Positions 14,054-44,987 of a stretch of 64,000 nucleotides of DNA are shown here, in pieces. Position 1 is the first letter of the stretch. Every line of letters begins with the position of its first letter. Below the pieces are notes generated by a model, which was not told the origin of the DNA, did no database searches, and saw nothing but the letters and a program-made list of their open reading frames with translations. Source of the stretch: Deltaproteobacteria bacterium (GTDB taxonomy: Bacteria; Desulfobacterota; GWC2-55-46); NCBI GenBank assembly GCA_015075075.1, contig JABTVA010000008.1, positions 50,215 to 114,214 on the forward strand. The letters are read 5' to 3'. Made by a program: the position numbers and the translations under genes.

Positions 14054-15921
14054 ATGGCGGTAAAGAAGATAGGCGAGCTCCTGGTCGAATCAGGGCTCAT
14101 AATGAGGACCAGCTCGAAGAGGCCCTTGCCGCGGGCAAGGAGAACAAGGGCACCAGGACAGGCGCCCTGCTCGTAAAGCTCGGGTACGCAACGGAGATTG
14201 ACATAGCCCAGACCCTCTCCTACCAGGTCGGCATCCCCTTCGTGGATATGGCTTCCACGACCGTGGACCCGGAGAGCATCAAGCTGGTCAACGAAAAGCT
14301 CGCCAGGAAGTACCTCCTTGTGCCGCTCTACCATGACAAGAAGGTCCTGAGGGTCGCCATGTCGGACCCGCTGAACCTGAACGCCATAGACGACCTGAGG
14401 TTTTCGACGGGCTTGGAGATACAGCCCTTCATCTCCACGCTCTCGGACATCAACGCCGCGATATCGAGGCACTATCACCTGAACGAGCCCATGATGGACG
14501 AGATACTGGGCGATTTCAAGAAGGACAGGTACGTCGAGGTATTCCACGAGTCCGAATCGAGCAGGGACCTTTCCGAGCAGGTAAAGAAGTCCGCCGCCCC
14601 GCCCATCATAAAGATGGTCGATTCCATCCTGATACACGGCTTCGACAACAGGGCGAGCGACATCCACATCGAGCCGCAGGAAAAGGGCGTGAAGCTCAGG
14701 ATACGGGTGGACGGGCTCATGCGCGAAACCAAGCAGCTCCCCAAATGGGTGCAGGGGCCTGTCGTTTCGAGGATAAAGATAATGGCCCGGATGGACATAG
14801 CCGAGAGGAGGACGGCCCAGGACGGCAGGTTCAAGGTGCGGATAGGGGAAAAGAGCATGGACGTGAGGGTCTCGTCGCTCCCGACCCAGCACGGCGAGAC
14901 GATAGTCATGCGGCTCCTCGACCCCAAGGCCGCCATGATAGACATAGAGGGCATAGGGATAGGAAAGGGTGAGCTCGACCGGGTGCTTGATATCATAGAG
15001 CGCCCCCAGGGGGTCGTGCTCGTCACCGGCCCCACTGGCTCGGGAAAGACCTCGACCCTTTACGCCATGCTCGCCCGCATAAAAAAGGAAGAGATAAACA
15101 TAATCACGATAGAGGACCCGATAGAGTACGAGCTCAAGGACGTAAACCAGGTGGCCGTGAACGACAAGACCGGCCTGACCTTCTCGTACACCCTGAGGTC
15201 GGTACTACGGCAGGACCCGGACGTCATACTCGTCGGCGAGATGAGGGACGCGGAGACGGCCACGATCGCCCACCAGGCCTCCCTTACGGGGCACCTTGTC
15301 TTCTCGACCCTGCACACAAACGACGCGGTATCATCGGTAACGAGGCTCCGTAACCTCGGCGTGCCTTCGTACATGATAGCGTCGGCCCTGAACGGCATAG
15401 TGGCCCAGAGGCTCGTGAGGATGATATGCAAGGGGTGCAGGGAGGAGTACACGCCGACCGGGCAGGAGATACGGAAGGCTGGGCTCAAGTGGTCCGGGAA
15501 GAAGCTCTACAGGGGCGCGGGATGCAGCCTCTGCGCCAATACCGGCTACTCGGGGAGGACCGGGATATTCGAGATAATATCGGTAAACGGCGCGATAAAG
15601 AACCTCATAGCCGCCGACGCCCCCGAGCACGAGATAATCGCCGCCGCCCTGGAAGGCGGCATGACCCCCATGCACATGGACGGGCTCGATAAGGTCTCTT
15701 CCGGCATAACCACGCTCGAAGAGCTCGCTCGGGTCATATACATGGCCAAGGAACCGGTATGCCCGGTTTGCCTTAAGACCGTACCGGCCGGTACGGAGAG
15801 ATGCGGCGAATGCGAAGCTGCCAAGGCCGCCGTCTGTCAATGGTGCGGGAAGGGACGGGAGGAGGGCTGGGTAGCGTGCCCCTGGTGCGCGCACGAGTTC
15901 GCCGCCGCCCCGCTATCATGA
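14054..15921 (+). CDS. MshE/GspE/PilB-family secretion ATPase with N-terminal c-di-GMP-binding MshEN-type domain and extra C-terminal double zinc ribbon; apparent -1 frameshift near 14100
   Basis: Walker A 'VLVTGPTGSGKTSTL' and the canonical tetracysteine 'CKGCREEY...CSLCANTGY'. Upstream, in another frame, 'MAVKKIGELLVESGLI|TEDQLEEAL...LVKLGYATEIDIAQTLSYQ' matches the MshEN motifs. The intact ORF starts at 14242. The C-terminus adds 'CPVCLK...CGECEA...CQWC...CPWCAHEF'. Confidence 0.75.
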
Positions 15922-16055: not shown

Positions 16056-16213
16056 TCAACACCCTGATAAAGTCCTGATGAGGCCTGCTCCTTTTCGGGG
16101 CTTTCCCTTTTTCCTGCTATCCTGATTTCCATGAGCCAGGCTTTTTTTGGTTTGCGGAAAAGTTCCACTTGTGATATATTCCGGCAATCCACTATGTGAG
16201 CGAGTTCAGGCGG

Positions 16214-16276: not shown

Positions 16277-16846
16277 ATGCTGAAATCCTCGCTGACCATA
16301 GCGCTCTTTGCCTTGGCTTGCATGCCGGGCTCCGCAATCGGGGAATTCTTTTCAATGGACCCGGCCCCTGCGGACAGGCCGTTCCTGGAACAAAAGAGGA
16401 AGCCGGGCGATATTAAGAAGGACAAGTACGGCCTCCCGGACCCCACTCCAGACGTAATCTCCCTTACGCACCTTCCAAAGGACCGATACGGCTTCGTAGA
16501 CTGGGCCGAGGCCATCTCCACGGGCGTAATCTCGCCGAAATCGTCGATCGACGGCTTGCCCGCAAGGCTCTCTCCCGTTGACAGGGAGAGGTTCGACGGG
16601 GACGTCCTCATAAGGTCCGGGAAGGAATTCATGCCGGACGTGCTCTTCCCGCATTCGGCCCACAACGAGTGGCTCAAGTGCTCCACCTGCCACCCCCGCA
16701 TATTCTCGAAGAAGGCCGGCGCGAGCCGCATTACGATGACGGGGATATGGAAGGGCAGGTTCTGCGGCGTATGCCATGACAAGGTGGCCTTTCCGACGAG
16801 GAACTGCTTCAAATGCCATTCGGTTCGGAAGGACGCGGGGAAATAG
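16277..16846 (+). CDS. Periplasmic triheme c-type cytochrome
   Basis: Signal peptide 'MLKSSLTIALFALACMPGSA'. Three CxxCH motifs (CSTCH, CGVCH, CFKCH). Confidence 0.75.
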   Translation: MLKSSLTIALFALACMPGSAIGEFFSMDPAPADRPFLEQKRKPGDIKKDKYGLPDPTPDVISLTHLPKDRYGFVDWAEAISTGVISPKSSIDGLPARLSPVDRERFDGDVLIRSGKEFMPDVLFPHSAHNEWLKCSTCHPRIFSKKAGASRITMTGIWKGRFCGVCHDKVAFPTRNCFKCHSVRKDAGK

Positions 16847-16869
16847 CATGTATTGTCCAGAGGAACAAC

Positions 16870-17469
16870 ATGCCTTTTGAAGACTTTTCAAAAAAGGAAC
16901 TTATAAGCATCCTGGAGATCATCGAGTCCGCCCAGAAATGCACGGGGGCGGACCAGATAAAGGACCTCATATTGAAGGCGAGGGGCGTCGTAGAGGCCGA
17001 TTACGCCGTCTGCGGACTATTGGGAAAGGAAAAATCAGGGGCGCCATGCATCAGCTCCTATATAAACGGAAATTATTCGGACGAATGGGTCAATAGATAC
17101 ATGAATGAGGGGTATGCCGCCAACGATCCGATAGTCAGGCACATGTCCAAGTATTCACTGAGCCGGTTATGGACCGAAATATTCAAGGAGCACAGGGACC
17201 CCGCCTCAACGAGGCTCCTTAAGGACGCTGAAGACTTCGACCTTAAGTTCGGGGTAACCGGCGGGGTGTTCGTGCCCGAGCTTGACCAGGTGGCCATCTT
17301 CACGTTCGCAGGGGGGAAAGACCGCTTCAGGGCCCACCATAAGAGGATAATGGACATACTCGTCCTCCATCTGCAGAGCGCGCTTGTAACTTCGATTGCG
17401 ACCGACGCAGCACTGGAAAAACTGCCGGACAAGGGGATGCCCAACTGGAGGTGCAAATATGGATTATAG
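16870..17469 (+). CDS. LuxR-type autoinducer-binding domain protein lacking the HTH domain (TrlR-like)
   Basis: Autoind_bind signature 'YSDEWVNRYMNEGYAANDPIVRH'. The protein ends at 199 aa with no LuxR-type HTH in any frame. Its stop overlaps the start of the downstream paralog. Confidence 0.65.
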   Translation: MPFEDFSKKELISILEIIESAQKCTGADQIKDLILKARGVVEADYAVCGLLGKEKSGAPCISSYINGNYSDEWVNRYMNEGYAANDPIVRHMSKYSLSRLWTEIFKEHRDPASTRLLKDAEDFDLKFGVTGGVFVPELDQVAIFTFAGGKDRFRAHHKRIMDILVLHLQSALVTSIATDAALEKLPDKGMPNWRCKYGL

Positions 17470-18200
17470 GAAATTCTCGAAAAAGGAGCTTGGAGATATC
17501 CTCGACCTCATCTAGATGTCCGTTGCGTGCCGGGCAGACGAGGACATCCTGAGATTGACAGGGAAAATAAAGGACCTCGTTTGCGCGGACCAGGGTGTAT
17601 GCGGGCTGGGCGGCATCGTTTCAGGCGAGCTCTCGAATATCATCAAGATAGTGAACTATGACTACTCTACCGAGTGGCTTTCCATGTATGCCGCCGAAAA
17701 ACTGTACAAGAACGATCCGATAATCAGGTACAATTACGAGCGCTTCGAGACGCATTTCTGGTCTGAGGCGATCGAGGCTTTCAATGACGAGTCCAGCAGG
17801 GATTTCATGAGGAAGGCTTCTGATTTCGGACTTGTCCACGGCGTGGCAAGCGGCATGCGCGACGGCGGCTCGAAGGGTTCGATATTTTCGTTCTCAAGCT
17901 CCAAGAACCGTTTCAGTAAACACCACAAGGACGTCCTGGACATACTCACCCCGCACGTCCACATGGCGCTGGCGAGGGTCGGAGGCGTCAGGAGCGAAAA
18001 GAGCGGTCCTCAGATCTCGGAAAGGGAAAAAGAGGTCTTGAACTGGATGAAGGAAGGCAAGACCAACTGGGAGATTTCGGTCATTGAACATCAGCGAAAG
18101 GACGGTCAAGTTCCACGTCCAGAATATAGAAAGAAAGCTCAATGCCGTAAATAAGGCTCGTACGATTGCGATAGCGATGGATATCGGGCTGGTAATGTAA
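17459..18200 (+). pseudogene. LuxR-family regulator (autoinducer-binding + LuxR HTH) interrupted by an in-frame TAG (17513-17515) and a -1 frameshift near 18095
   Basis: Paralog of the upstream gene (MDYRKFSKKELGDILDLI*MSVACRADED... vs MPFEDFSKKELISILEIIESAQKCTGADQ...). It has 'YSTEWLSMYAAEKLYKNDPIIRY'. In the -1 frame, 'NISERTVKFHVQNIERKLNAVNKARTIAIAMDIGLVM*' is the LuxR-type HTH. Confidence 0.55.
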
Positions 18201-18239
18201 GATCCATGCAAGGAGCTCGGTCTTCTGTCCGCGCATAGT

Positions 18240-18789
18240 TCCTCGAAAGACCCCAGTCAAGCTCTATCGCGCCCGCGACTACGCCGTCCGGCATCGTGAC
18301 GAAATCCGCCAGCTGCGTTACCGGGAAGCCGCAGAGCCCTCAAAAGCCTGTAGTATCGCTTGTCCACTACCATGACCATGCGCCTTACGCCTCTCAGGGC
18401 GCTCCAATTGTATATGGCCTTGTAAATCAAGCGGGAGATGAGCGACGCGTTCTTCTCCGCTCCTCTTTACGCAGAGCCGGGTGATTTCAGGCCATGTCCG
18501 TCTTTGCGGAACTCGCCCTCGCCGGCATCATGCAGGCGAACTCCTTTCCACCATGAACGGATAAGGATGCGTTATGAGCCTGGCATGTCCGAGAATGCTC
18601 ATGTCCATCCTGAACACGCCGATGCATTCCGCAAACCTGTCATACTCGTCGGTCTCCATCCCGTCCTGCGAGCACCGCACCCACTTGAGTTCCGGGCGAA
18701 GACCTCATGGCGGAGCTAAGCGCCGCCTCGAATTCCTCAGAGCGGAGATGGTCTTTATTGAACCCGCTATCCTCGAATATCAGTTCCAT
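18240..18789 (-). pseudogene. LuxI-family acyl-homoserine-lactone synthase, multiply frameshifted (not in ORF track)
   Basis: Minus-strand translation across three frames gives MELIFEDSGFNKDHLRSEEFEAA | LRHEVFAR | ELKWV..ETDEYDRFAECIGVF...HARLITHPYPF | TWPEITRLCV | LIYKAIYNWSALRGVRRMVMVVDKRYYRLLRAL | PVTQLADFVTMPDGVVAGAIELD. This is colinear with the LuxI blocks LRYQVFKQRLEWDL..ESDEYD, WELSRFA, LFEAIYKHAV..VTVTSTAIERFLKRI. The 3' boundary is uncertain. Confidence 0.55.
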
Positions 18790-19008
18790 GTCCCTTTTAG
18801 CAGGAAGGGGCGGGGTCACGTAACTGGCAGGCATATCAGTTCACTTTATGCGGCGTAGTTGTAAAATAAAAAATTTAATTCCGGGGACCTGGCCAAAGTG
18901 CAGTGGGACCGGGCGGGTAAATGATGTATAATGCTGCCGTTCCGATTTGAGAGAGGGCAGGGCAAAACCCGGTACTTAAGGCGTGCAGGCATCCTGAAAG
19001 GAGTTTGT

Positions 19009-19719
19009 ATGGACGCTGACTACAGGAGGTGCCGTGAGACCGCTTTCAAGGCGCTCATTGGTCCTCATACGGACTCGCGGAGTTCGGCAGGAACGTCTTC
19101 TGGAGCTAATGGTATCGTACGCAGCGCCCAGGAAAGACGCCCGGACGTCTCCGACAGGCTCCTCAGGAGGTTCAGGGGTTTAAAGGCGCCTCGACGCATC
19201 CCGGAAGAGCTTAAGGCCGAGGGCTCGCTGGGCGACGACGGCATAGTGCTCGTCAAGCTATTCAAGGAGATGGCGGGCGCCTATCTTAAGGAGCGGACGG
19301 TCGGGCAGGATGCCGAGGCCGGCATGGCGGACCTCCTCGACTACCTTTGCCTTACGCTATCCGGCGAGAGGGTCGAGAAGTTCTTAGCGGTATACATGGG
19401 GTTCAGGAAAGAGATAATCTCCATAGACGTTCTGCACGAGGGCACCATAAACCAGACCGTCGTGTATCCGAGGAAGGCCATTGAGATGGCCTTCAGGCAT
19501 AACGCCAGGTCGGTCATCTTCGTCCACAACCACCCGAGCGGCGACCCCACGCCGTCGAGCCAGGACAGGCAGCTTACAAGGGTCCTGGACAGGGCCGCTT
19601 CCGCGGTCGACATACTGGTCCTTGACCACCTGATAATCGGCAGGGACAGGCACTTCAGCGCCAGGGAGAACGGCTGGTCGATGGGGCTTCCCTTCAACTG
19701 CATCGCCGCAAGCCCCTGA
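19009..19719 (+). CDS. radC: RadC-family JAB/MPN domain protein
   Basis: C-terminal 'HNHPSGDPTPSSQD' JAMM motif. RBS AAAGGAG precedes the ATG at 19009. Confidence 0.8.
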   Translation: MDADYRRCRETAFKALIGPHTDSRSSAGTSSGANGIVRSAQERRPDVSDRLLRRFRGLKAPRRIPEELKAEGSLGDDGIVLVKLFKEMAGAYLKERTVGQDAEAGMADLLDYLCLTLSGERVEKFLAVYMGFRKEIISIDVLHEGTINQTVVYPRKAIEMAFRHNARSVIFVHNHPSGDPTPSSQDRQLTRVLDRAASAVDILVLDHLIIGRDRHFSARENGWSMGLPFNCIAASP

Positions 19720-19737
19720 TGTCGACTTAAAAGGCCT

Positions 19738-19880
19738 TTGTTGTCATTGCGGAGCTTTGGCTCGAAGCAATCTCAAATGCCCGATATTCCAAAAAATGAG
19801 AGTGCTTCCCGCCACGCTTCGCTCGCGGCTTCGGCTCACACGCTCGCAATGACGAATATGCGAATCAGTCAGAGCTTCCT
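19738..19880. mobile_element. MITE-like element, family B (degenerate copy)
   Basis: Shares the core 'TTGTCATTGC...GATTGCTTCCCGCCACGCTTCGCTCGCGGCTTCGGCTCACACGCTCGCAATGACGAA' with the copy at 22226. The right TIR is degenerate ('GAATCAGTCAGAGCTTCC'). Confidence 0.65.
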
Positions 19881-19912
19881 TAACTTGGTGCTCTTAAGAA
19901 GAGTCGGCCTGT

Positions 19913-22114
19913 TCAATCCGGCCTCTTTGAGCGTTCGAGCGCCTCTGAAACGGCCTTCAAGAGGCTTCCTACCGAATAGGGCTTGGGGAGAAAGCTGTAG
20001 CCTTTTTCCTTGAGGAGAGGCCTCGATGTCTCCTCGGCGTAGCCGCTCGTTATTACCACCGCCATGCCGGGTTTTTTCGTAAGGAGCTCCTCGGCGAGAT
20101 TGAAACCGCTCTTGTCCTTGAGGACAAGGTCCGAAAATAAGACCTTGAGGTCCGGTTCCCTCTGGAACGCCTCCATCGCCTCTTTCGCGTTCCCGGCCTC
20201 GACGACCTTGAACCCGTTATTCGCAAGCGCTGCCTTCGTGAACTCCCTTACCGGCAGGTCGTCCTCGACGAGAAGGACCTTTTCCCCTCCGCCCTTCAAG
20301 GGCTTAACCTCGCGCGCCTCCTTCTCCGGGAGTGCGGCCGGGAAATAGATCTTGAAAATGGTGCCCCTGCCCGGTTCGCTCTTGACAGATATCCACCCCC
20401 GGTGCTGCTTGACTATGCTGTAGACTATGGAGAGCCCGAACCCCGTCCCCTTGCCGGCCTCCTTGGTGGTAAAGAAAGGCTCGAATATCCTGGACAGGAA
20501 CTCCTTCTCAATGCCCACGCCCGTGTCGGCCACGGTAAGGCAGACCGCCTCCCCGGGGCGGGCGTCAGGTACTGATTTGGCCCGGCGCTCGTCTATGAAG
20601 ACGTTTTCCGTCTTTATGGAGAGCGTCCCGCCCGCGGGCATGGCGTCCTTCGCGTTCAGGGCGAGGTTCATGATGACCTGCTCGATATTGCTCTCGTCGG
20701 CCTCTATGGTACAGAGGTCGGGGGCCAGGTCGGTCGAGATGGTGATGTCCTCCCCGATTATGTGGGTGATCATGACCAGGAGCTCATCGACGAGCTTGTT
20801 CACGTTGAGCGGCACGAGCTCGAAGGGCTGGCCGCGGCTGAAGAGGAGGAGCTGCCGGGTAAGCTTGGAGGCGAGCATCACGGAGTTGACAATGCCGTCA
20901 ACGCGCGGGTATGCAGGGTCGGACTTCTTCATTTCCTCGAGGGCCAGCTCTGCATTGCCCCTTATCGCCGTGAGGATGTTGTTGAAGTCGTGCGATATCC
21001 CTCCCGCGAACCTCCCTATTGCCTCCATCTTCTGCGACTGGCTGAGGCGCGCCTGTATGAGCTCCCTTTCGCGTTCGGCGCGCTTCCTTTCGGTTATGTC
21101 CCGGACCATGCCCGTGAAGTGGAGCACACCGCCGAGGGTGAAGTTATTGAGGGCGAGCTCCAGCGGGAATATCTCTCCGTTTTTCCTCAAGCCTTCGAAT
21201 TCGTGTATCCTGCCCTGTACCGTGCTCTCCCCGGTCCTCAAAAACCTTTCAAGCCCCTCCTTGTGGGCCTTCTTGTATTTGTCAGGGACGAGGACCCCGA
21301 CGTCCTGCCCGATGAGCTCTTCCCTGGGATATCCGAATATCCGGGCCGCGCTCTCGTTGCAGTCGATTATCCTGTCCTTTGCGTCGGCTATGATTATGCC
21401 GTCGAATGCGGTATTGTGGACGAGCCGGTACCTGGTCTCGCTCTCCTTCAGGGCCATCTCGGTCTTCTTCCTCTCGGTTATGTCCTCGCCGGAGCTCAAT
21501 GTGCCGGCTGCGATGCCGCCCTCCATCAGCACGGCGTTGTGCCACAGGACGACCCTTTCCTCGCCGCTTCTCGTCAATACCGGGTTCTCGAAATAGCCCT
21601 CGGCCTCCCTGCCGCCGGAGATGAGCCTGGCGAACTCGAACCGAACCTCTTTTTTGAGCCTGGCCGGCAAGAAGTTCTCGACCCAGTCCCTGCCGAGGAC
21701 CTCTTCCTCCCGGTACCCGAGCGTCTGGCAGGCGTTCCTGTTTATAAGGCGCACCTTCCCTTCCCGGTCAAGGACGACCACCATCACCCCTGCCACATCG
21801 AGGTACTTCTGGAACCGGTCCCTTTCCCTCGAAGCCGTCCTCTCGGCCTCCTCGCGTTTTTCAACGAGCGCCATGAGCGGCCTGAATATGAAGAAATAAA
21901 GGATGGGCGAGAGGATGAGCACAAGGAGCGGGGCGTCTATGAAGATGGCATGGACCGGCTCAAGGAAGTCCCTGTAGAAATAGAAGAGCATCATTATAAA
22001 GGCCTCGACGAAGAAAACCGAAAGGACCAGTATGACGATTATCTTTATCGGCGAATAGGTCCGGGCTTCCGTCCTCTGCTCTGGCCTGCCCTGGCGTGAG
22101 GTCTTCTCTTCCAT
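19913..22114 (-). CDS. Hybrid sensor histidine kinase (TM - PAS x2 - HisKA - HATPase_c - receiver)
   Basis: 733 aa. H-box 'SHDFNNILTAIRGNAELA', an ATPase G-box, and a C-terminal receiver 'KVLLVEDD...'. An N-terminal TM segment is present. Confidence 0.85.
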   Translation of the reverse strand: MEEKTSRQGRPEQRTEARTYSPIKIIVILVLSVFFVEAFIMMLFYFYRDFLEPVHAIFIDAPLLVLILSPILYFFIFRPLMALVEKREEAERTASRERDRFQKYLDVAGVMVVVLDREGKVRLINRNACQTLGYREEEVLGRDWVENFLPARLKKEVRFEFARLISGGREAEGYFENPVLTRSGEERVVLWHNAVLMEGGIAAGTLSSGEDITERKKTEMALKESETRYRLVHNTAFDGIIIADAKDRIIDCNESAARIFGYPREELIGQDVGVLVPDKYKKAHKEGLERFLRTGESTVQGRIHEFEGLRKNGEIFPLELALNNFTLGGVLHFTGMVRDITERKRAERERELIQARLSQSQKMEAIGRFAGGISHDFNNILTAIRGNAELALEEMKKSDPAYPRVDGIVNSVMLASKLTRQLLLFSRGQPFELVPLNVNKLVDELLVMITHIIGEDITISTDLAPDLCTIEADESNIEQVIMNLALNAKDAMPAGGTLSIKTENVFIDERRAKSVPDARPGEAVCLTVADTGVGIEKEFLSRIFEPFFTTKEAGKGTGFGLSIVYSIVKQHRGWISVKSEPGRGTIFKIYFPAALPEKEAREVKPLKGGGEKVLLVEDDLPVREFTKAALANNGFKVVEAGNAKEAMEAFQREPDLKVLFSDLVLKDKSGFNLAEELLTKKPGMAVVITSGYAEETSRPLLKEKGYSFLPKPYSVGSLLKAVSEALERSKRPD

Positions 22115-22225
22115 TTTCCTTTTCCTGGAGAAATGTCGCGCTTCTGATTGACGGGTTGAGGTCTTTCCAGGCTGCTATCCCGTTCCGGGCAGCCTGGCAT
22201 CCCGCCGCGGGAATGGGCTGGTTTA

Positions 22226-22398
22226 GGGAAGGTCTGATTAATTCTGTTTTCTGTTGTCATTGCTTAGGAGCTAAAGCTACGAAGCAATCTCTAAGTGCTT
22301 GATTTTCCAAAAGATAAGATTGCTTCCCGCCACGCTTCGCTCGCGGCTTCGGCTCACACGCTCGCAATGACGAACACATTGAATTAATCAGAGCTTCC
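22226..22398. mobile_element. MITE-like element, family B (TIR GGAAG(G/C)TCTGATTAATTC)
   Basis: About 18-bp TIRs enclose an internal hairpin (ATTGCTTAGGAGC / GCTACGAAGCAAT). It lies in the same orientation as the copy at 19738; the two flank the kinase gene. Confidence 0.7.
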
Positions 22399-22544
22399 TT
22401 AGTTTTGATTTTTATTCCAAAATTCCGGCTTTTCGCGCGTAATCGGAATATTTGCCCGCCCGTCCTGTATACCAGCCTGGCCCTCGGTAGAGCCGGGCAG
22501 AAGGCCTGAACTAAATATTCTGTATTTCTCGGCTTTCGTCAAGC

Positions 22545-24032: not shown

Positions 24033-24300
24033 GGCTGCTGAAAAAGCCCAATCTGCTGTGTCGTCTTCAAAGTTGGACACTCCGGCGTACAAGAAAAGTA
24101 CGCCTCATTCCTAAGGAAGCTCTGATTAATTCAATGTGTCGTCATTGCGAGCGAAGTTGAAACAATCTTATCTTTGGAAAATCAAGCATTAGAGATTGCT
24201 TCGGAGCTAAAGCTCCTAAGCAATGACAACAGAAAACAGAATTAATCAGACCTTCCCTAATTTTTCGACTCCTTGCATCTTGAGCTTTTTGAGCAGCCTG
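24033..24300. mobile_element. MITE family C copy interrupted by a nested family B MITE (24120-24251)
   Basis: Left part 24033-24119 and right part 24252-24300 match the intact C copies. The inserted B element carries TIRs 'GGAAGCTCTGATTAATTC / GAATTAATCAGACCTTCC'. Confidence 0.75.
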
Positions 24301-39067: not shown

Positions 39068-39351
39068 GCAACCTCTAAAAATTGCTATTTTCCCCGGACT
39101 CTGCGTAGTGCGGGAATAAAAATGCTCACATATTCAAAATATATGCTCCGCTTTTTATTCCCGCCTTTCCGGGAAAAGCGGGAAAAATCTCTAAGGAACC
39201 TCTGATTAATTCATGTGTTCGTCATTGCGAGCGAAGCGAAGCAATCTTATCTTTTGGAAAATCAAGCGCTTAGAGATTGCTTCGGAGCTGAAGCTCCGCA
39301 ACGACAAGAAACGAGAATTAATCAGAGCTTCTCTAATTTTTAGAGGTCGCC
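39068..39351. mobile_element. MITE family D with a nested family B MITE (39200-39327)
   Basis: Left D TIR 'GCAACCTCTAAAAATT' at 39068 and right D TIR 'TTTTTAGAGGTCGCC' at 39337-39351. The B element 'CTCTGATTAATTC...GAATTAATCAGAG' is inserted just before the right TIR. Confidence 0.75.
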
Positions 39352-39395
39352 TTGAATCAGCCTTTTGCCTCTTTCGATCTCAATGGGGAGCGAGA

Positions 39396-40367
39396 ATGCA
39401 CATACCTGACGGATACCTGAGCCCGGCGACCTGCGGCGTTTTTTACGCGGCAATGGCCCCGGTCTGGTACTTCGCCTCGAAGAGGGCGGAGAAGGTCCTT
39501 AAGCTCAGGGAGATGCCGTTACTTGCGCTCGGCGCGGCCTTCGTCTTCGTCATCATGATGTTCAACATCCCGCTCCCCGGCGGCTCTTCAGGGCACATGG
39601 CGGGCGGGGCGGTCGTGGCCATAGCGCTCGGGCCCTGGGCCGGGATAATCGCCATGAGCCTCGCGCTCGCGCTCCAGGCATTCCTCTTCGGCGACGGCGG
39701 CATCATGACGCTTGCGGCCAATTGCTTCAACATGGCCGTCATAATGAGCCTTTCGGGATACGGCATTTACCGGGCGCTCGCCTTCGGGGAGCCCGGCGCC
39801 GGAAGAAGGTTTTTCGCCGCCGCGGTTGCGGCATACGTCGCCGTCAACCTGGCCGCGCTCGCGGTGGCAGTGGAGCTGGGCATGCAGCCTCTTCTGGCAG
39901 CCGGGGCTGACGGCAGGCCGCTCTACGCGCCGTACCCGCTCTCCATCGCGGTGCCGGCGATGATGATCCCGCACCTCTTCTTTTTCGGGCCTGTCGAGGC
40001 TGTCGGGACGGCCCTTGTGGTATCCTATGTGCACTGGATGGATAGGGGCCTCCTCCACAAGGGGAAGGGGTCGCTTAAGCCCTTATGGATCGCGTTGTCC
40101 GTTCTTGCAGTGCTTACGCCCGCAGGGCTTATCGCGTCTGGCACGCCCTGGGGCGAATGGGGAAAGGATGAGCTTATGGAGCTCATAGGCTATGTGCCCG
40201 CCGGGATGGAGAAGTACGGGGAGACATGGAAGGGGTTTGTCCCGGATTACAGCCTCCCGCGGATGAGCGGCTTGCCTGAGCCCGTTATCTATATGCTCTC
40301 GGCCCTCCTTGGGAGCGCGCTCCTGGTCGCGGCCGTATACGCGTGGGGCAGGCTATGGCGGAGGTGA
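39396..40367 (+). CDS. cbiM: Cobalt ECF transporter S component CbiM fused to CbiN
   Basis: Starts 'MHIPDGYLS...' (CbiM N-terminal His motif). The C-terminal extension carries a CbiN-like TM pair. Confidence 0.8.
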   Translation: MHIPDGYLSPATCGVFYAAMAPVWYFASKRAEKVLKLREMPLLALGAAFVFVIMMFNIPLPGGSSGHMAGGAVVAIALGPWAGIIAMSLALALQAFLFGDGGIMTLAANCFNMAVIMSLSGYGIYRALAFGEPGAGRRFFAAAVAAYVAVNLAALAVAVELGMQPLLAAGADGRPLYAPYPLSIAVPAMMIPHLFFFGPVEAVGTALVVSYVHWMDRGLLHKGKGSLKPLWIALSVLAVLTPAGLIASGTPWGEWGKDELMELIGYVPAGMEKYGETWKGFVPDYSLPRMSGLPEPVIYMLSALLGSALLVAAVYAWGRLWRR

Positions 40368-42704: not shown

Positions 42705-43776
42705 GCTCAGGAAAGGGTATACGACAGGGACTTGCGCCGCTGCCGGGGCAAAGGCAGCGGCGCTCTTGCTTCTGGGCGGCCTGAGGCCGGGACACGTGGA
42801 TGTGCCGCTGCCGCGCGGCGGGATCTTGAGGGTGCCGGTAAAGTCGGTTGCCGGCGGAAAGGGTTTTGCGAGGGCCGTAATAGTGAAAGACGCCGGCGAC
42901 GACCCGGATGTGACGGACAAGGCCGAGTTCGTGGCCGAGGTCGAGATGCTCGGCGAGAACGCCAGGCGCGCGTCCGTAAGGGTGAGGGGCGGTAAGGGGG
43001 TAGGGGTCGTTACGAAACCCGGGCTAAAGGTCAGGCCCGGAAAACCCGCCATAAACCCCGTGCCGCTTTCGATGATACGGAAGGCGGTAAGGGAAGCTGC
43101 GGCCCGTTATCATAAGAAGGCGTCCTTCCTCGTGACCATATCCGTGCCGCTTGGAGCAGAGCTTGCCGCCAGGACCATGAACCCCAGGCTCGTCATCGTC
43201 GGCGGCATCTCGATTTTAGGCACTACCGGCATAGTCGAGCCCATGTCCCTTGCCGCGTACACCCATTCCATCTCGTGCGGCGTGAGCGTGGCCGTGGCAA
43301 GCGGACTTCAAGATGTGGTGTTCTCGACCGGCCGGTCGAGCGAAAAGGCCGTGGAGAAAAGGCTCAAGGTCCCGGAGGCGGCCTGCGTACTTACAGGCGA
43401 CCACATGGGCTATGCGCTCAGGGACGCGGCCACGAGGCCGGAAATAAAAAAGGTGGTCGTCGCCGGCCAGTTCGGGAAATTCACCAAGCTCGCCGCTGGG
43501 CGCTTCGAGACGCACTGCGACGACGCGCCCATAGAGCTCGATTTCCTGGCCGGGCTTTGCGAAAGGCTCGGCGCAGGGAAGGCGCTGGCCGGGCGGATAA
43601 GAGAGGCAAATACCGCGAGGCATGCGTTTTTCATGCTAAAGGAAAGCGGCCTTGAGAAGGCGCTGGACGAGGTCTCTATCCTGGTGAAAAGGAATGCGGA
43701 AAGGATACTCGGCAAGGGGAAGTCCGTGACCGCGGTCCTCGTCGGGTATGACGGGGACATAGCTTCGATAAGATGA
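42691..43776 (+). CDS. cbiD: Cobalt-precorrin-5B (C1)-methyltransferase
   Basis: 'LRKGYTTGTCAAAGAKAA' N-terminal signature. Length and order fit CbiD. Confidence 0.85.
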   Translation: MPGRKLRKGYTTGTCAAAGAKAAALLLLGGLRPGHVDVPLPRGGILRVPVKSVAGGKGFARAVIVKDAGDDPDVTDKAEFVAEVEMLGENARRASVRVRGGKGVGVVTKPGLKVRPGKPAINPVPLSMIRKAVREAAARYHKKASFLVTISVPLGAELAARTMNPRLVIVGGISILGTTGIVEPMSLAAYTHSISCGVSVAVASGLQDVVFSTGRSSEKAVEKRLKVPEAACVLTGDHMGYALRDAATRPEIKKVVVAGQFGKFTKLAAGRFETHCDDAPIELDFLAGLCERLGAGKALAGRIREANTARHAFFMLKESGLEKALDEVSILVKRNAERILGKGKSVTAVLVGYDGDIASIR

Positions 43777-44987
43777 TATACGTAATAGGTATAGGGATAC
43801 AGGGCAGAGATAGCCTCCTTCCAGAGGCGCTCGGCATAATAGAAAAGGCGGGCTTGCTTGTCGGAGGGAAAAGGCACCTTTCGGAATTCCCGGGGAGCGG
43901 AGCTATTAAAGTCCAGCTGGGAGGTCTTGAAGAGGCCGCGCGCGAGATGGAAAAGTATCTCGGAAGGAAGGACAGGCGGCCCGTCGCGGTCCTTGCGACC
44001 GGCGACCCGCTCATCTTCGGCATAGGCTCGTTCATCATAAGGAGATTCGGGAAGAGACGCGTCCGGGTGATTCCGAACGTGAGCGCGATACAGGAGGCCT
44101 TCTCGCGCATAAAAGAGGACATGAACGGGGTAAAGCTCCTGAGCGTCCACGGGAGGGAAGCGGATTACGCGCTACTCTCGAAAGAGGCGATGTCGAATGA
44201 GAAGCTCGCCCTCTTTACAGACATGGTCAACACCCCGGCCCGGATATGCCGGGAACTTATAGGGCGCGGCCTGGAAGGCTTCAGGGCCTTTGTCTGCGAG
44301 TCCCTCGGGGCAAATGAAAGGATGACCGAAGGCACGCTCGAATCGATCTCCAAAAGAAGGTCCTTTGCCCCGCTCAACGTCCTGGTTCTCATAAAAGATC
44401 CAAGACCCGCTGCCCGTGAAACCGGTTTCGGCATCCCGGACAGCCTCTTTTCGCATGCAGGCGGGATGATAACAAAAGAGGAGTTCAGGGTCGTTTCCCT
44501 ATCCAAGCTCGGTTTGTCCGAAGGCAGTGTTGTCTGGGACATAGGCGCCTGCTCCGGGTCGGTCGCCAGAGAGGCCGCGCTTCTTACAGGCGGAAAGGTC
44601 TTCGCCATAGAGCGCGACAGAAAACGCATTTCCGACATACGCGAGAACAAGGGCCGCTTCGGCTGCGCCAACCTCAGGGTAATTGAGGGCGAGGCGCCGG
44701 GGGCGCTTAAGGGCCTTCCTGCGCCTGACGCGGTATTCGTGGGCGGCGGCGGAAAAGGCATAAGGGCGATACTCTCCTATGCGGCAAACAGGCTTAAGCC
44801 TGGGGGCAGGGTCGTTGTGAACGCGGTTACGATCGAGACCGCCTCTGCCGCGTTCGAGTTCTTCGGGAAAAAGGGCTGGGAAAAGGGGCTTATACAGATG
44901 TCGATTTCCAAGGCAAGGCCCGCGGGCGGTTTGAATATGCTCGCCGCCTGCAACCCGGTATTCATAATAAGCGGGAAAAAACCTTGA
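43773..44987 (+). CDS. cbiET: Cobalt-precorrin-6Y C5,15-methyltransferase/decarboxylase (CbiE-CbiT fusion)
   Basis: N-terminal tetrapyrrole methylase fold 'MIYVIGIGIQGRD'. C-terminal SAM-MTase 'VVWDIGACSGSVA'. Confidence 0.8.
   Translation: MIYVIGIGIQGRDSLLPEALGIIEKAGLLVGGKRHLSEFPGSGAIKVQLGGLEEAAREMEKYLGRKDRRPVAVLATGDPLIFGIGSFIIRRFGKRRVRVIPNVSAIQEAFSRIKEDMNGVKLLSVHGREADYALLSKEAMSNEKLALFTDMVNTPARICRELIGRGLEGFRAFVCESLGANERMTEGTLESISKRRSFAPLNVLVLIKDPRPAARETGFGIPDSLFSHAGGMITKEEFRVVSLSKLGLSEGSVVWDIGACSGSVAREAALLTGGKVFAIERDRKRISDIRENKGRFGCANLRVIEGEAPGALKGLPAPDAVFVGGGGKGIRAILSYAANRLKPGGRVVVNAVTIETASAAFEFFGKKGWEKGLIQMSISKARPAGGLNMLAACNPVFIISGKKP

Follow-up and report, generated by a model that had tools for sequence, protein, structure and literature searches.

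An apparent LuxI/LuxR-type signalling locus with a conserved receptor lacking the helix-turn-helix in uncultured Thermodesulfobacteriota, disrupted in one assembly by local sequence errors

Two genes for LuxR-type autoinducer-binding proteins follow the gene of a triheme cytochrome c in a 64,000-nt stretch of a Deltaproteobacteria bacterium genome (assembly GCA_015075075.1, contig JABTVA010000008.1, positions 50,215 to 114,214; this whole stretch is referred to as the window), and a luxI-like gene converges on them from the opposite strand in so many pieces that no open reading frame (ORF) had been called for it. The question raised by this locus is whether a quorum-sensing circuit is decaying in this lineage, or whether it is intact and hidden by errors in the sequence. 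The initial annotation, which was made from the window alone, had left both possibilities standing. The features it had described, namely the triheme cytochrome, a LuxR paralog lacking the helix-turn-helix (HTH), a frame-changed LuxR with a TAG codon and the fragmented luxI on the minus strand, were all found in place, and its identification of a LuxI/LuxR-type locus adjoining a triheme cytochrome is right.

Our analysis indicates, with a probability of roughly 0.8, that this is a working-looking LuxI/LuxR signalling locus of uncultured Thermodesulfobacteriota with a conserved HTH-less receptor, and that the breakage of luxI is a local artefact of sequencing error. The genes and the stretch on which this conclusion depends are as follows.

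18082..19802, unstranded: error-dense stretch, 28 indel events in 1.72 kb relative to the same-species locus L001
18139..18789, minus strand: luxI, encoding a LuxI-family protein predicted to be an acyl-homoserine-lactone (AHL) synthase, truly 666 nt / 221 aa, overlapping the 3' end of luxR by ~60 nt
16870..17469, plus strand: luxRN, encoding LuxR-N, a LuxR-type autoinducer-binding protein of 199 aa without HTH (Autoind_bind only, 8.3e-20)
17459..17515, plus strand: original 5' end of luxR (MDYRKFSKKELGDILDLI) up to a premature TAG at 17513-17515, with a GGAGG Shine-Dalgarno sequence and an 11-nt overlap with the luxRN stop
17516..18200, plus strand: body of luxR (Autoind_bind and GerE HTH), its ATG at 17516 immediately following the TAG

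Sequence errors and a nonsense allele

Searching public data for sequences that exactly match the cytochrome and the HTH-less receptor retrieved the same locus. Copies from the same species are present in two NCBI metagenome-assembled genomes (MAGs), GCA_048500075.1 (contig JASNYS010000004.1, 182 kb) and GCA_023384475.1 (contig JAHDWX010000002.1, 476 kb), as well as in the assemblies of four further public read sets. Four of these six copies, the two MAGs and two of the read-set assemblies, cover all genes from luxRN to radC; the read-set contig L004/L014 stops inside luxR and the read-set contig L015 (SRR32233572) inside luxI. All four fully spanning copies are intact, with a LuxR-N of 199 aa, a LuxR of 228 aa carrying Autoind_bind and GerE, a convergent LuxI of 221 aa carrying Autoind_synth, and then radC; the intact LuxI stands in L001, L012, L013 and L003.

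When aligned with the 12.5-kb locus L001, the window is 99.6% identical and differs by 29 indel events, comprising 26 deletions and 3 insertions in the window. All of them except one lie between 18082 and 19802, and the remaining one (14103) is found in the other 10.8 kb, from which alone the background indel rate was taken; look-ups of the window proteins at 43773-44987 and 39213-40367, which were meant to gauge the error rate elsewhere, gave no matches. Runs of at least two identical bases hold 21 of the 29 sites and runs of at least three hold 15, as for example at 18465, where seven T are reduced to three. At every indel position the five other assemblies are concordant and the window alone deviates. 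The damage is found not only in luxI but also across the luxI-radC intergenic DNA and in the 5' part of radC, and the same 1.72 kb contains about a dozen substituted columns as against 28 indels. Natural divergence within the species, as represented by the variant strain L015, amounts to 12 single-nucleotide polymorphisms (SNPs), mostly synonymous, and to no indels. A patch of this kind, biased towards deletions, centred on homopolymers and with sharp limits, is typical of consensus errors left uncorrected, one possible cause being an unpolished long-read fill. An exact-product look-up of the truncated LuxR ORF of the window (17516-18154) found no public record, which fits errors private to this assembly. 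The patch ends at an interspersed repeat of ~150 nt.

These figures also bear on a real decay in the strain of the window, in which luxI, the luxR HTH and the 5' end of radC would be true pseudogenes with frameshifts. The frameshifts do stand in the sequence of the window, and the TAG at 17513 is a genuine disabling change common to several assemblies. However, this TAG is the only disabling change that independent assemblies share: none of the indels recurs in the five other same-species assemblies, where variation consists of SNPs only, and their excess over substitutions, their bias towards deletions in homopolymers, and the fact that intergenic DNA and radC are equally affected while the flanking 10.8 kb holds a single indel, all point away from gene decay, which we regard as extremely unlikely.

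The peptide blocks by which luxI had been recognized were all found on the minus strand between 18139 and 18789, spread over three frames. The gene had been drawn up to 18810; its real end is at 18789, and it is the damage that continues to 19802, through the intergenic DNA and the 5' portion of radC. That luxI is frameshifted in the window was correct, but instead of the "at least 5" frameshifts counted before there are 14 indel events (net -15 nt), all of them private. Even a crude stitched translation of the window matches Autoind_synth (PF00765) with 5.9e-15 and 55.7 bits against a gathering threshold of 24, and the intact 221-aa LuxI of the corrected sequence reaches 66.1 bits.

In luxR, both the frame change near 18082, past which the HTH had been seen, and the in-frame TAG at 17513 are present in the window, but only the first is an error. 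The apparent frame change consists of 2 nt (AT) missing in the window after 18082; further private differences are substitutions at 18160/18162 and the loss of a G from the stop codon. In the other assemblies luxR is continuous over 228 aa from the ATG at 17516 (Autoind_bind 4.9e-19, GerE 1.7e-21), and in the true sequence (L001, L015) both domains stand in one ORF, which in the window is split by the private 2-nt deletion. Position 17513, on the other hand, is T in the window as well as in four other assemblies, and C in L015, where the resulting CAG (Gln) gives a LuxR of 247 aa. The relatives L008 and L010 read ...DLIQMSVACR at this site, and all related species have CAG or another sense codon there. 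The TAG is a genuine CAG-to-TAG nonsense allele at codon 19 of luxR, polymorphic within the species, and the strain of the window lacks a full-length luxR ORF. Of the two possibilities left by the initial annotation, concealment by errors holds for luxI and for the frame change before the luxR HTH, whereas the TAG is real. A recoding or read-through of this codon was considered and rejected, as TAG is an ordinary stop in this genome and terminates 8 of 40 long ORFs, luxRN included.

For the scanning of genomes this serves as a warning: where a "cryptic" gene with many frameshifts appears amid clean sequence, the cause can be a defect of the assembly at that place, and a comparison with independent assemblies quickly resolves artefact from decay.

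Two minor observations concern the surroundings of the patch. The repeat at which it ends is the first copy of an interspersed intergenic family of ~100-180 nt, 81-96% alike, with direct and inverted copies at 19739-19882, 22223-22401, 24112-24260 (minus strand) and 39238-39336 (minus strand). The private 1-nt deletion at 14103 (CATAATAGAGG read as CATAAT-GAGG), the sole indel outside the patch within the 12.5 kb compared, removes the N-terminal MshEN part from a type II/IV secretion ATPase gene (14242-15921), whose ORF has 559 aa from a GTG in the window and 622 aa in three other assemblies.

Synthase, candidate operators and operon

The order of the genes is c7 cytochrome, luxRN and luxR on the plus strand, luxI on the minus strand convergent on luxR, and radC on the plus strand divergent from luxI. 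This module is kept in every relative retrieved (at least 10 loci), among them MAGs from groundwater and sediment under the labels Deltaproteobacteria or Thermodesulfobacteriota, CP129479.1 (L021), which is a complete genome of 2.75 Mb, and a Joint Genome Institute metagenome contig with different outer flanks. The 3' ends of luxR and luxI overlap by ~52-62 nt in all loci. In addition, a scan of a genome collection with the LuxR-N alignment returned five related species, the window's own species not being among them.

Autoind_synth is the best Pfam family of all LuxI members tested (62-69 bits in the relatives), and Acetyltransf_5 and FeeM give weaker matches. The active site of LuxI comprises R25, F29, W35, D46, D49, R70, E101 and R104 in LuxI numbering (PMC12781772). 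All eight have counterparts with the right spacing (R28, F32, W38, D49, D52, R72, E104 and R107), which align to LasI; across 27 members of the clade each of them is either invariant or conserved to at least 90%. A profile of the clade finds the solved structures of LasI, EsaI, TofI, BjaI, RpaI and one further AHL synthase (4e-11 to 7e-7); among the entries of the PDB no other acyltransferase was significant, and FeeM was not found. The identity to any solved LuxI is at most ~25%. The family falls into 52 clusters, the minority of which with a named source comes from uncultured Thermodesulfobacteriota/'Deltaproteobacteria' MAGs or an unclassified bacterium. We infer that LuxI belongs to a divergent branch of its family and that its product is an AHL.

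The most distant relative, in L025 (SRR33956869), is a LuxI homolog of 260 aa that is 40% identical; its gene stands beside a radical-SAM/SPASM gene, and the cytochrome cassette is missing there. The ~80-nt spacer 5' of this luxI holds ACCTGTCAATTCTGACAGGT, a perfect palindrome of 20 bp.

Strong conservation outside the coding sequences is confined to blocks between luxI and radC (alignment A2), which have the same geometry in ten loci.

18822..18841, unstranded: Box A, a 20-bp lux-box-type palindrome AACTG-N10-CAGTT, intact in the window and invariant in ten loci
18889..18903, unstranded: remnant of Box B, true sequence CCCTGTACCAAAGTGCAGTG with the core CTGTAC-N4-GTGCAG, the left half destroyed by private errors at 18890-18892
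19010..19719, plus strand: radC, a RadC-like JAB domain protein (Pfam RadC 7.7e-36), divergent from luxI

On the minus strand, towards luxI, a -10-like hexamer TAAAAA stands 21-22 nt from Box A, and on the plus strand a TAnAAT hexamer is 21 nt away; a consensus scan also calls a plus-strand promoter, TTCACT-17-TAAAAT, at this box. The luxI ATG follows the TAAAAA hexamer after 6-22 nt. This distance is only 6-7 nt in L001 (8531-8544) and at the equivalent sites of L005, L008, L018, L021 and L023, suggesting a leaderless luxI mRNA, whereas L006, L016, L017 and L020 have a leader of 17-22 nt with GGAGG instead. Box B has the core CTGTAC-N4-GTACAG, relatives reading tCCTGTACCTTGGTACAGtc, and in ten loci it precedes a TATAAT hexamer directed towards radC by 21-22 nt. 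With boxes of 20 bp, this spacing would place each centre ~43 nt before a presumed start site, as for class-II activators, and these positions fit activation. With their CTG-N10-CAG cores, both are predicted LuxR operators at the promoters of luxI and radC. A pattern search of the 64-kb window gave one match to Box A and no second, so that no further members of the regulon can be named in it; it gave no match to Box B, because the copy in the window is damaged.

The synthase active site, a receptor with Autoind_bind and GerE, and 20-bp palindromes at these positions are shared with the canonical LuxI/LuxR circuit, as known with the lux box of Vibrio fischeri and the las/rhl boxes of Pseudomonas. 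The lux box of V. fischeri is ACCTGTAGGATCGTACAGGT, to which Box B of the relatives is closely similar. Differences from that circuit are the thermodesulfobacterial instead of proteobacterial host, the low identity of LuxI to the solved synthases, the additional HTH-less receptor, the presence of two boxes with different half-sites and radC as a predicted second target. Convergent luxR and luxI genes with overlapping 3' ends are also known from EsaR/EsaI of Pantoea and ExpR/ExpI of Pectobacterium. EsaR-type receptors, however, are repressors released by AHL, with an extended linker and C-terminus, while the positions of the boxes described here are those expected for activation.

RadC stands beside luxI in every locus bearing the cassette. 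Five private indels (19066-19199) scramble the window's codons for residues ~45-90, in the numbering of the annotated protein that begins at 18931; relatives show good conservation of this segment. The true start of radC is most likely the ATG at 19010, which follows a Shine-Dalgarno sequence AAGGAG and matches the MDAD... of the relatives. The latter lack the annotated N-terminus (MLPFRFERG..., 18931-19009), whose coding sequence overlaps the conserved TATAAT hexamer.

At the other end of the locus, the cytochrome and a candidate promoter precede the receptor genes.

16277..16846, plus strand: c7-type triheme cytochrome, periplasmic, 189 aa, signal-like at its N-terminus and with three CXXCH at the C-terminal end
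16152..16180, plus strand: sigma-70-type promoter (TTGCGG, 17 nt, TG-n-TATATT extended -10), conserved, upstream of the cytochrome

The description of the cytochrome as periplasmic and triheme agrees with its three CXXCH motifs (CSTCH, CGVCH and CFKCH) and with its matches to Cytochrome_C7 (PF14522; 4.4e-12, 46 bits vs 24.8) and TIGR04257 (62.5 bits vs a cut-off of 40). It is identical in four other assemblies and stands directly upstream of luxRN in all relatives. When eight relatives are aligned, conservation 5' of the cytochrome is limited to the blocks TTTGC and TGTGaTAttAT, and no lux box is present there. The gap between the cytochrome and luxRN is -1 to 35 nt in all loci, and luxRN and luxR overlap by 11 nt in the window; these short distances argue for one operon of cytochrome, luxRN and luxR, of which 16152-16180 is the likely promoter.

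Several points weigh against the reading of the locus as a working-looking signalling system. The NCBIfam cut-offs for AHL synthases are missed by LuxI (NF010408, 78.6 vs 292; NF052393, 75.8 vs 250), which has weaker matches to FeeM and to an exosortase-associated acyltransferase family, and the best NCBIfam match of LuxR is EpsA, below its cut-off. The premature TAG may deprive the strain of the window of a functional DNA-binding receptor. The link to the cytochrome may be functional, through co-transcription, or its adjacency could be plain synteny within a narrow clade. Finally, the signal, the regulon and the interaction of LuxR-N with LuxR are all predicted from sequence alone.

The NCBIfam scores could mean that the synthase is a related N-acyltransferase, FeeM-like or of the exosortase-associated family TIGR03694, which works with an EpsA-like regulator and makes another N-acyl signal. 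LuxR indeed scores 106 bits against EpsA (TIGR03020), and LuxI 49 bits against TIGR03694 and 25-36 bits against Pfam FeeM (gathering threshold 27), to which the wide distance from the AHL-synthase equivalogs and from the solved LuxI structures may be added. Nevertheless, the first two scores remain below the cut-offs of 170 and 112, so that the EpsA and acyltransferase pair is not recovered, and among the called neighbours within ~5 kb no exosortase or PEP-CTERM gene was found at any locus. Given also the rank of Autoind_synth in every member tested, the near invariance of the eight residues for S-adenosylmethionine and acyl binding, a clade profile that finds AHL synthases and not FeeM, and the AHL pocket kept in both receptors, we consider such an N-acyltransferase improbable. 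As judged by Pfam thresholds and by active-site and pocket residues, and despite the missed equivalog cut-offs of NCBIfam, the signalling proteins of this locus are members of the LuxI and LuxR families.

The two receptors

LuxR-N had been described as ending after the ligand-binding domain with no HTH, and in agreement with this its sole Pfam match is Autoind_bind (PF03472). The family consists of ten clusters at 90% identity, with 195-201 aa and PF03472 only, down to 45% identity; downstream of luxRN no remnant of an HTH was detected. LuxR-N and the neighbouring LuxR are 28-41% identical (about 30%), which implies that the duplication predates these species. The ratio of non-synonymous to synonymous substitution rates (dN/dS), taken from unsaturated pairs, is 0.11-0.13 for luxRN, 0.08 for luxR, 0.21 for luxI and 0.14-0.21 for the cytochrome, and the HTH of LuxR is nearly invariant across the clade. 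By its identity to LuxR and its dN/dS, LuxR-N is an old paralog under purifying selection.

An AlphaFold2 model of LuxR-N, with a predicted local distance difference test (pLDDT) score of 84.8, has the LuxR ligand-binding fold with a last helix at 155-182 and a disordered tail at 184-199. Its best Foldseek matches are the ligand-binding domains of CviR, CepR2, LasR, RhlR, SdiA and QscR. LuxR-type pockets are lined by W57, Y61, D70, P71, W85 and G113 in TraR numbering (PMC11655674). LuxR-N has W73, Y77, D86, P87 and W101 (motif W-x3-Y-x8-DP-x13-W) and a Gly 27 residues past W101, as seen in invariant alignment columns. Both receptors retain this motif at almost every locus, an exception being LuxR in L010, which has Ala for Pro. 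The LuxR-N clusters P0008 and P0009 have Phe in place of the first pocket Trp, W73 (EEF vs EEW), the same exchange as W57F in CerM (PMC11655674). A recent truncation of the TrlR kind was rejected as the origin of LuxR-N on account of its ~30% identity to LuxR, its orthologs in at least 10 lineages and a dN/dS of ~0.1.

To our knowledge, TrlR and CerN, both from Alphaproteobacteria, are the only HTH-less LuxR proteins that have been characterized. TrlR (TraS) of octopine-type Agrobacterium Ti (tumour-inducing) plasmids consists of the ligand-binding domain only and is dominant-negative, forming inactive heterodimers with the full-length receptor (PMC13043044, PMC11655674); it arose recently as a truncated copy of TraR, with which it shares 88% identity (PMC11655674). 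The likeness of LuxR-N to TrlR that had been proposed therefore holds for domain content, but not for origin, as an old paralog with ~30% identity, kept at 194-201 aa across species and at a dN/dS of ~0.1, stands against a recent copy. CerN of Cereibacter sphaeroides, which occurs there with CerM, CerR and CerI, is likewise HTH-less, has the pocket WYDPWG, is ~31% identical to an adjacent full-length LuxR paralog and stands beside luxI (PMC11655674). AHL-bound CerN binds CerM and interferes with its binding to DNA (PMC11655674). LuxR-N and LuxR, which are adjacent, about 30% identical and both in possession of the pocket, resemble CerN and CerM in architecture and age as far as these are described for CerN, which would make CerN the closest functional precedent. 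The two systems also differ: CerN is found in an alphaproteobacterial host with two full-length LuxR proteins, and CerM binds DNA without AHL, whereas the locus described here has one full-length LuxR, a convergent and overlapping luxI and a probably co-transcribed cytochrome.

What the nonsense allele does to LuxR in the strain of the window depends on translation beyond the TAG. The allele may be a null, leaving a strain that produces the signal yet is blind to it, with LuxR-N as its sole remaining AHL binder. Codons 1-19, which would be lost, correspond to helix alpha-1, a helix that is confidently modelled in the paralog LuxR-N (residues 8-22), and no Shine-Dalgarno sequence is present within 20 nt upstream of the ATG at 17516, while TAG is a normal stop. 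On the other side, TAG and ATG are directly adjacent (TAGATG) behind an 18-codon leader with a strong GGAGG Shine-Dalgarno sequence, an arrangement that favours termination-reinitiation and could yield a LuxR without residues 1-19. In addition, the ORF past the TAG is intact in five assemblies and differs from that of the CAG strain by 4 synonymous changes and 1 non-synonymous change. Weighing these points, we put the chance of a null somewhat short of even.

Exchange of the triad and the proposed circuit

The genome CP129479.1 (L021), from a close relative of the window's organism, carries the same module in nearly the same surroundings, but with a different set of signalling proteins. Compared with L001, the flanking proteins are 96% (DUF362), 95% (T2SSE), 92% (cytochrome), 95% (RadC) and 91% (PAS kinase) identical, whereas LuxR-N is 48%, LuxR 55% and LuxI 55% identical. 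At the nucleotide level the identity drops from ~93% to ~58% exactly at the start of luxRN and is restored ~80 nt inside the 5' end of luxI, corresponding to 16870 to ~18710 of the window. The triad of L021 is nearest to that of L006 (LuxR-N 55%, LuxR 65%, LuxI 71%), a locus of a more distant species with flanks of no more than 63-75% identity. L001 and L021 have the same Box B, and the half-sites of Box A are kept. This incongruence appears best explained by a recombinational replacement of luxRN, luxR and luxI together, which speaks for LuxR-N as a functional part of the same set of signal and receptors.

A wider suggestion, which we put forward tentatively, is that the triad constitutes a co-adapted signal-specificity cassette that is swapped by recombination at a fixed chromosomal site among Thermodesulfobacteriota, the operators, the LuxR HTH, the cytochrome and the radC target remaining constant. 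This would be a pherotype-like diversification outside the Proteobacteria, with the HTH-less receptor as its obligatory third component.

The circuit that we propose would work as follows. The cytochrome, luxRN and luxR would be transcribed together from the conserved sigma-70 promoter, and LuxI would make the AHL. AHL-bound LuxR would bind Box A and Box B and activate luxI, giving positive feedback, as well as radC. LuxR-N would bind the same AHL, pair with LuxR via the ligand-binding domain and titrate LuxR or modulate its binding to DNA, so that this pairing would set the threshold of the response or damp the feedback. In the strain of the window, LuxR would either be made from the ATG after the TAG without helix alpha-1, or not be made at all, and the cells would then be signal-producing and signal-blind.

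For the central step of this circuit, the modulation of LuxR by complex formation with LuxR-N, as by TrlR with TraR and by CerN with CerM, we see about an even chance. LuxR-N might instead act apart from LuxR, as an intracellular sink for AHL or with another partner, for example in a step linked to the cytochrome. The disordered 17-residue tail of LuxR-N, which varies between lineages, and the conserved apparent co-transcription with the cytochrome would agree with such an independent role. However, both characterized HTH-less LuxR proteins bind full-length LuxR (PMC11655674, PMC13043044), luxRN overlaps or abuts luxR, making translational coupling likely, it has been swapped together with luxR and luxI as one cassette, and the cytochrome is periplasmic but LuxR-N cytoplasmic. 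A LuxR-independent function is, in our opinion, rather unlikely, and a similar share of probability falls to roles of another kind.

If this picture is confirmed, the exchanged triads would provide a natural set of allelic circuits in which to follow how an HTH-less receptor tunes the response to AHL, and the defined pair of operators together with the luxR nonsense allele would give access to signal-blind variants in natural populations. The locus in any case extends what appears to be a complete LuxI/LuxR system with a conserved three-gene core to uncultured Thermodesulfobacteriota of groundwater and sediment, where the three-gene unit has apparently been swapped between close relatives and a nonsense allele of luxR segregates naturally.

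Finally, just past radC the minus strand encodes a 733-aa hybrid histidine kinase of PAS/PAS architecture with a receiver domain (19913-22114), whose position is kept in most relatives.

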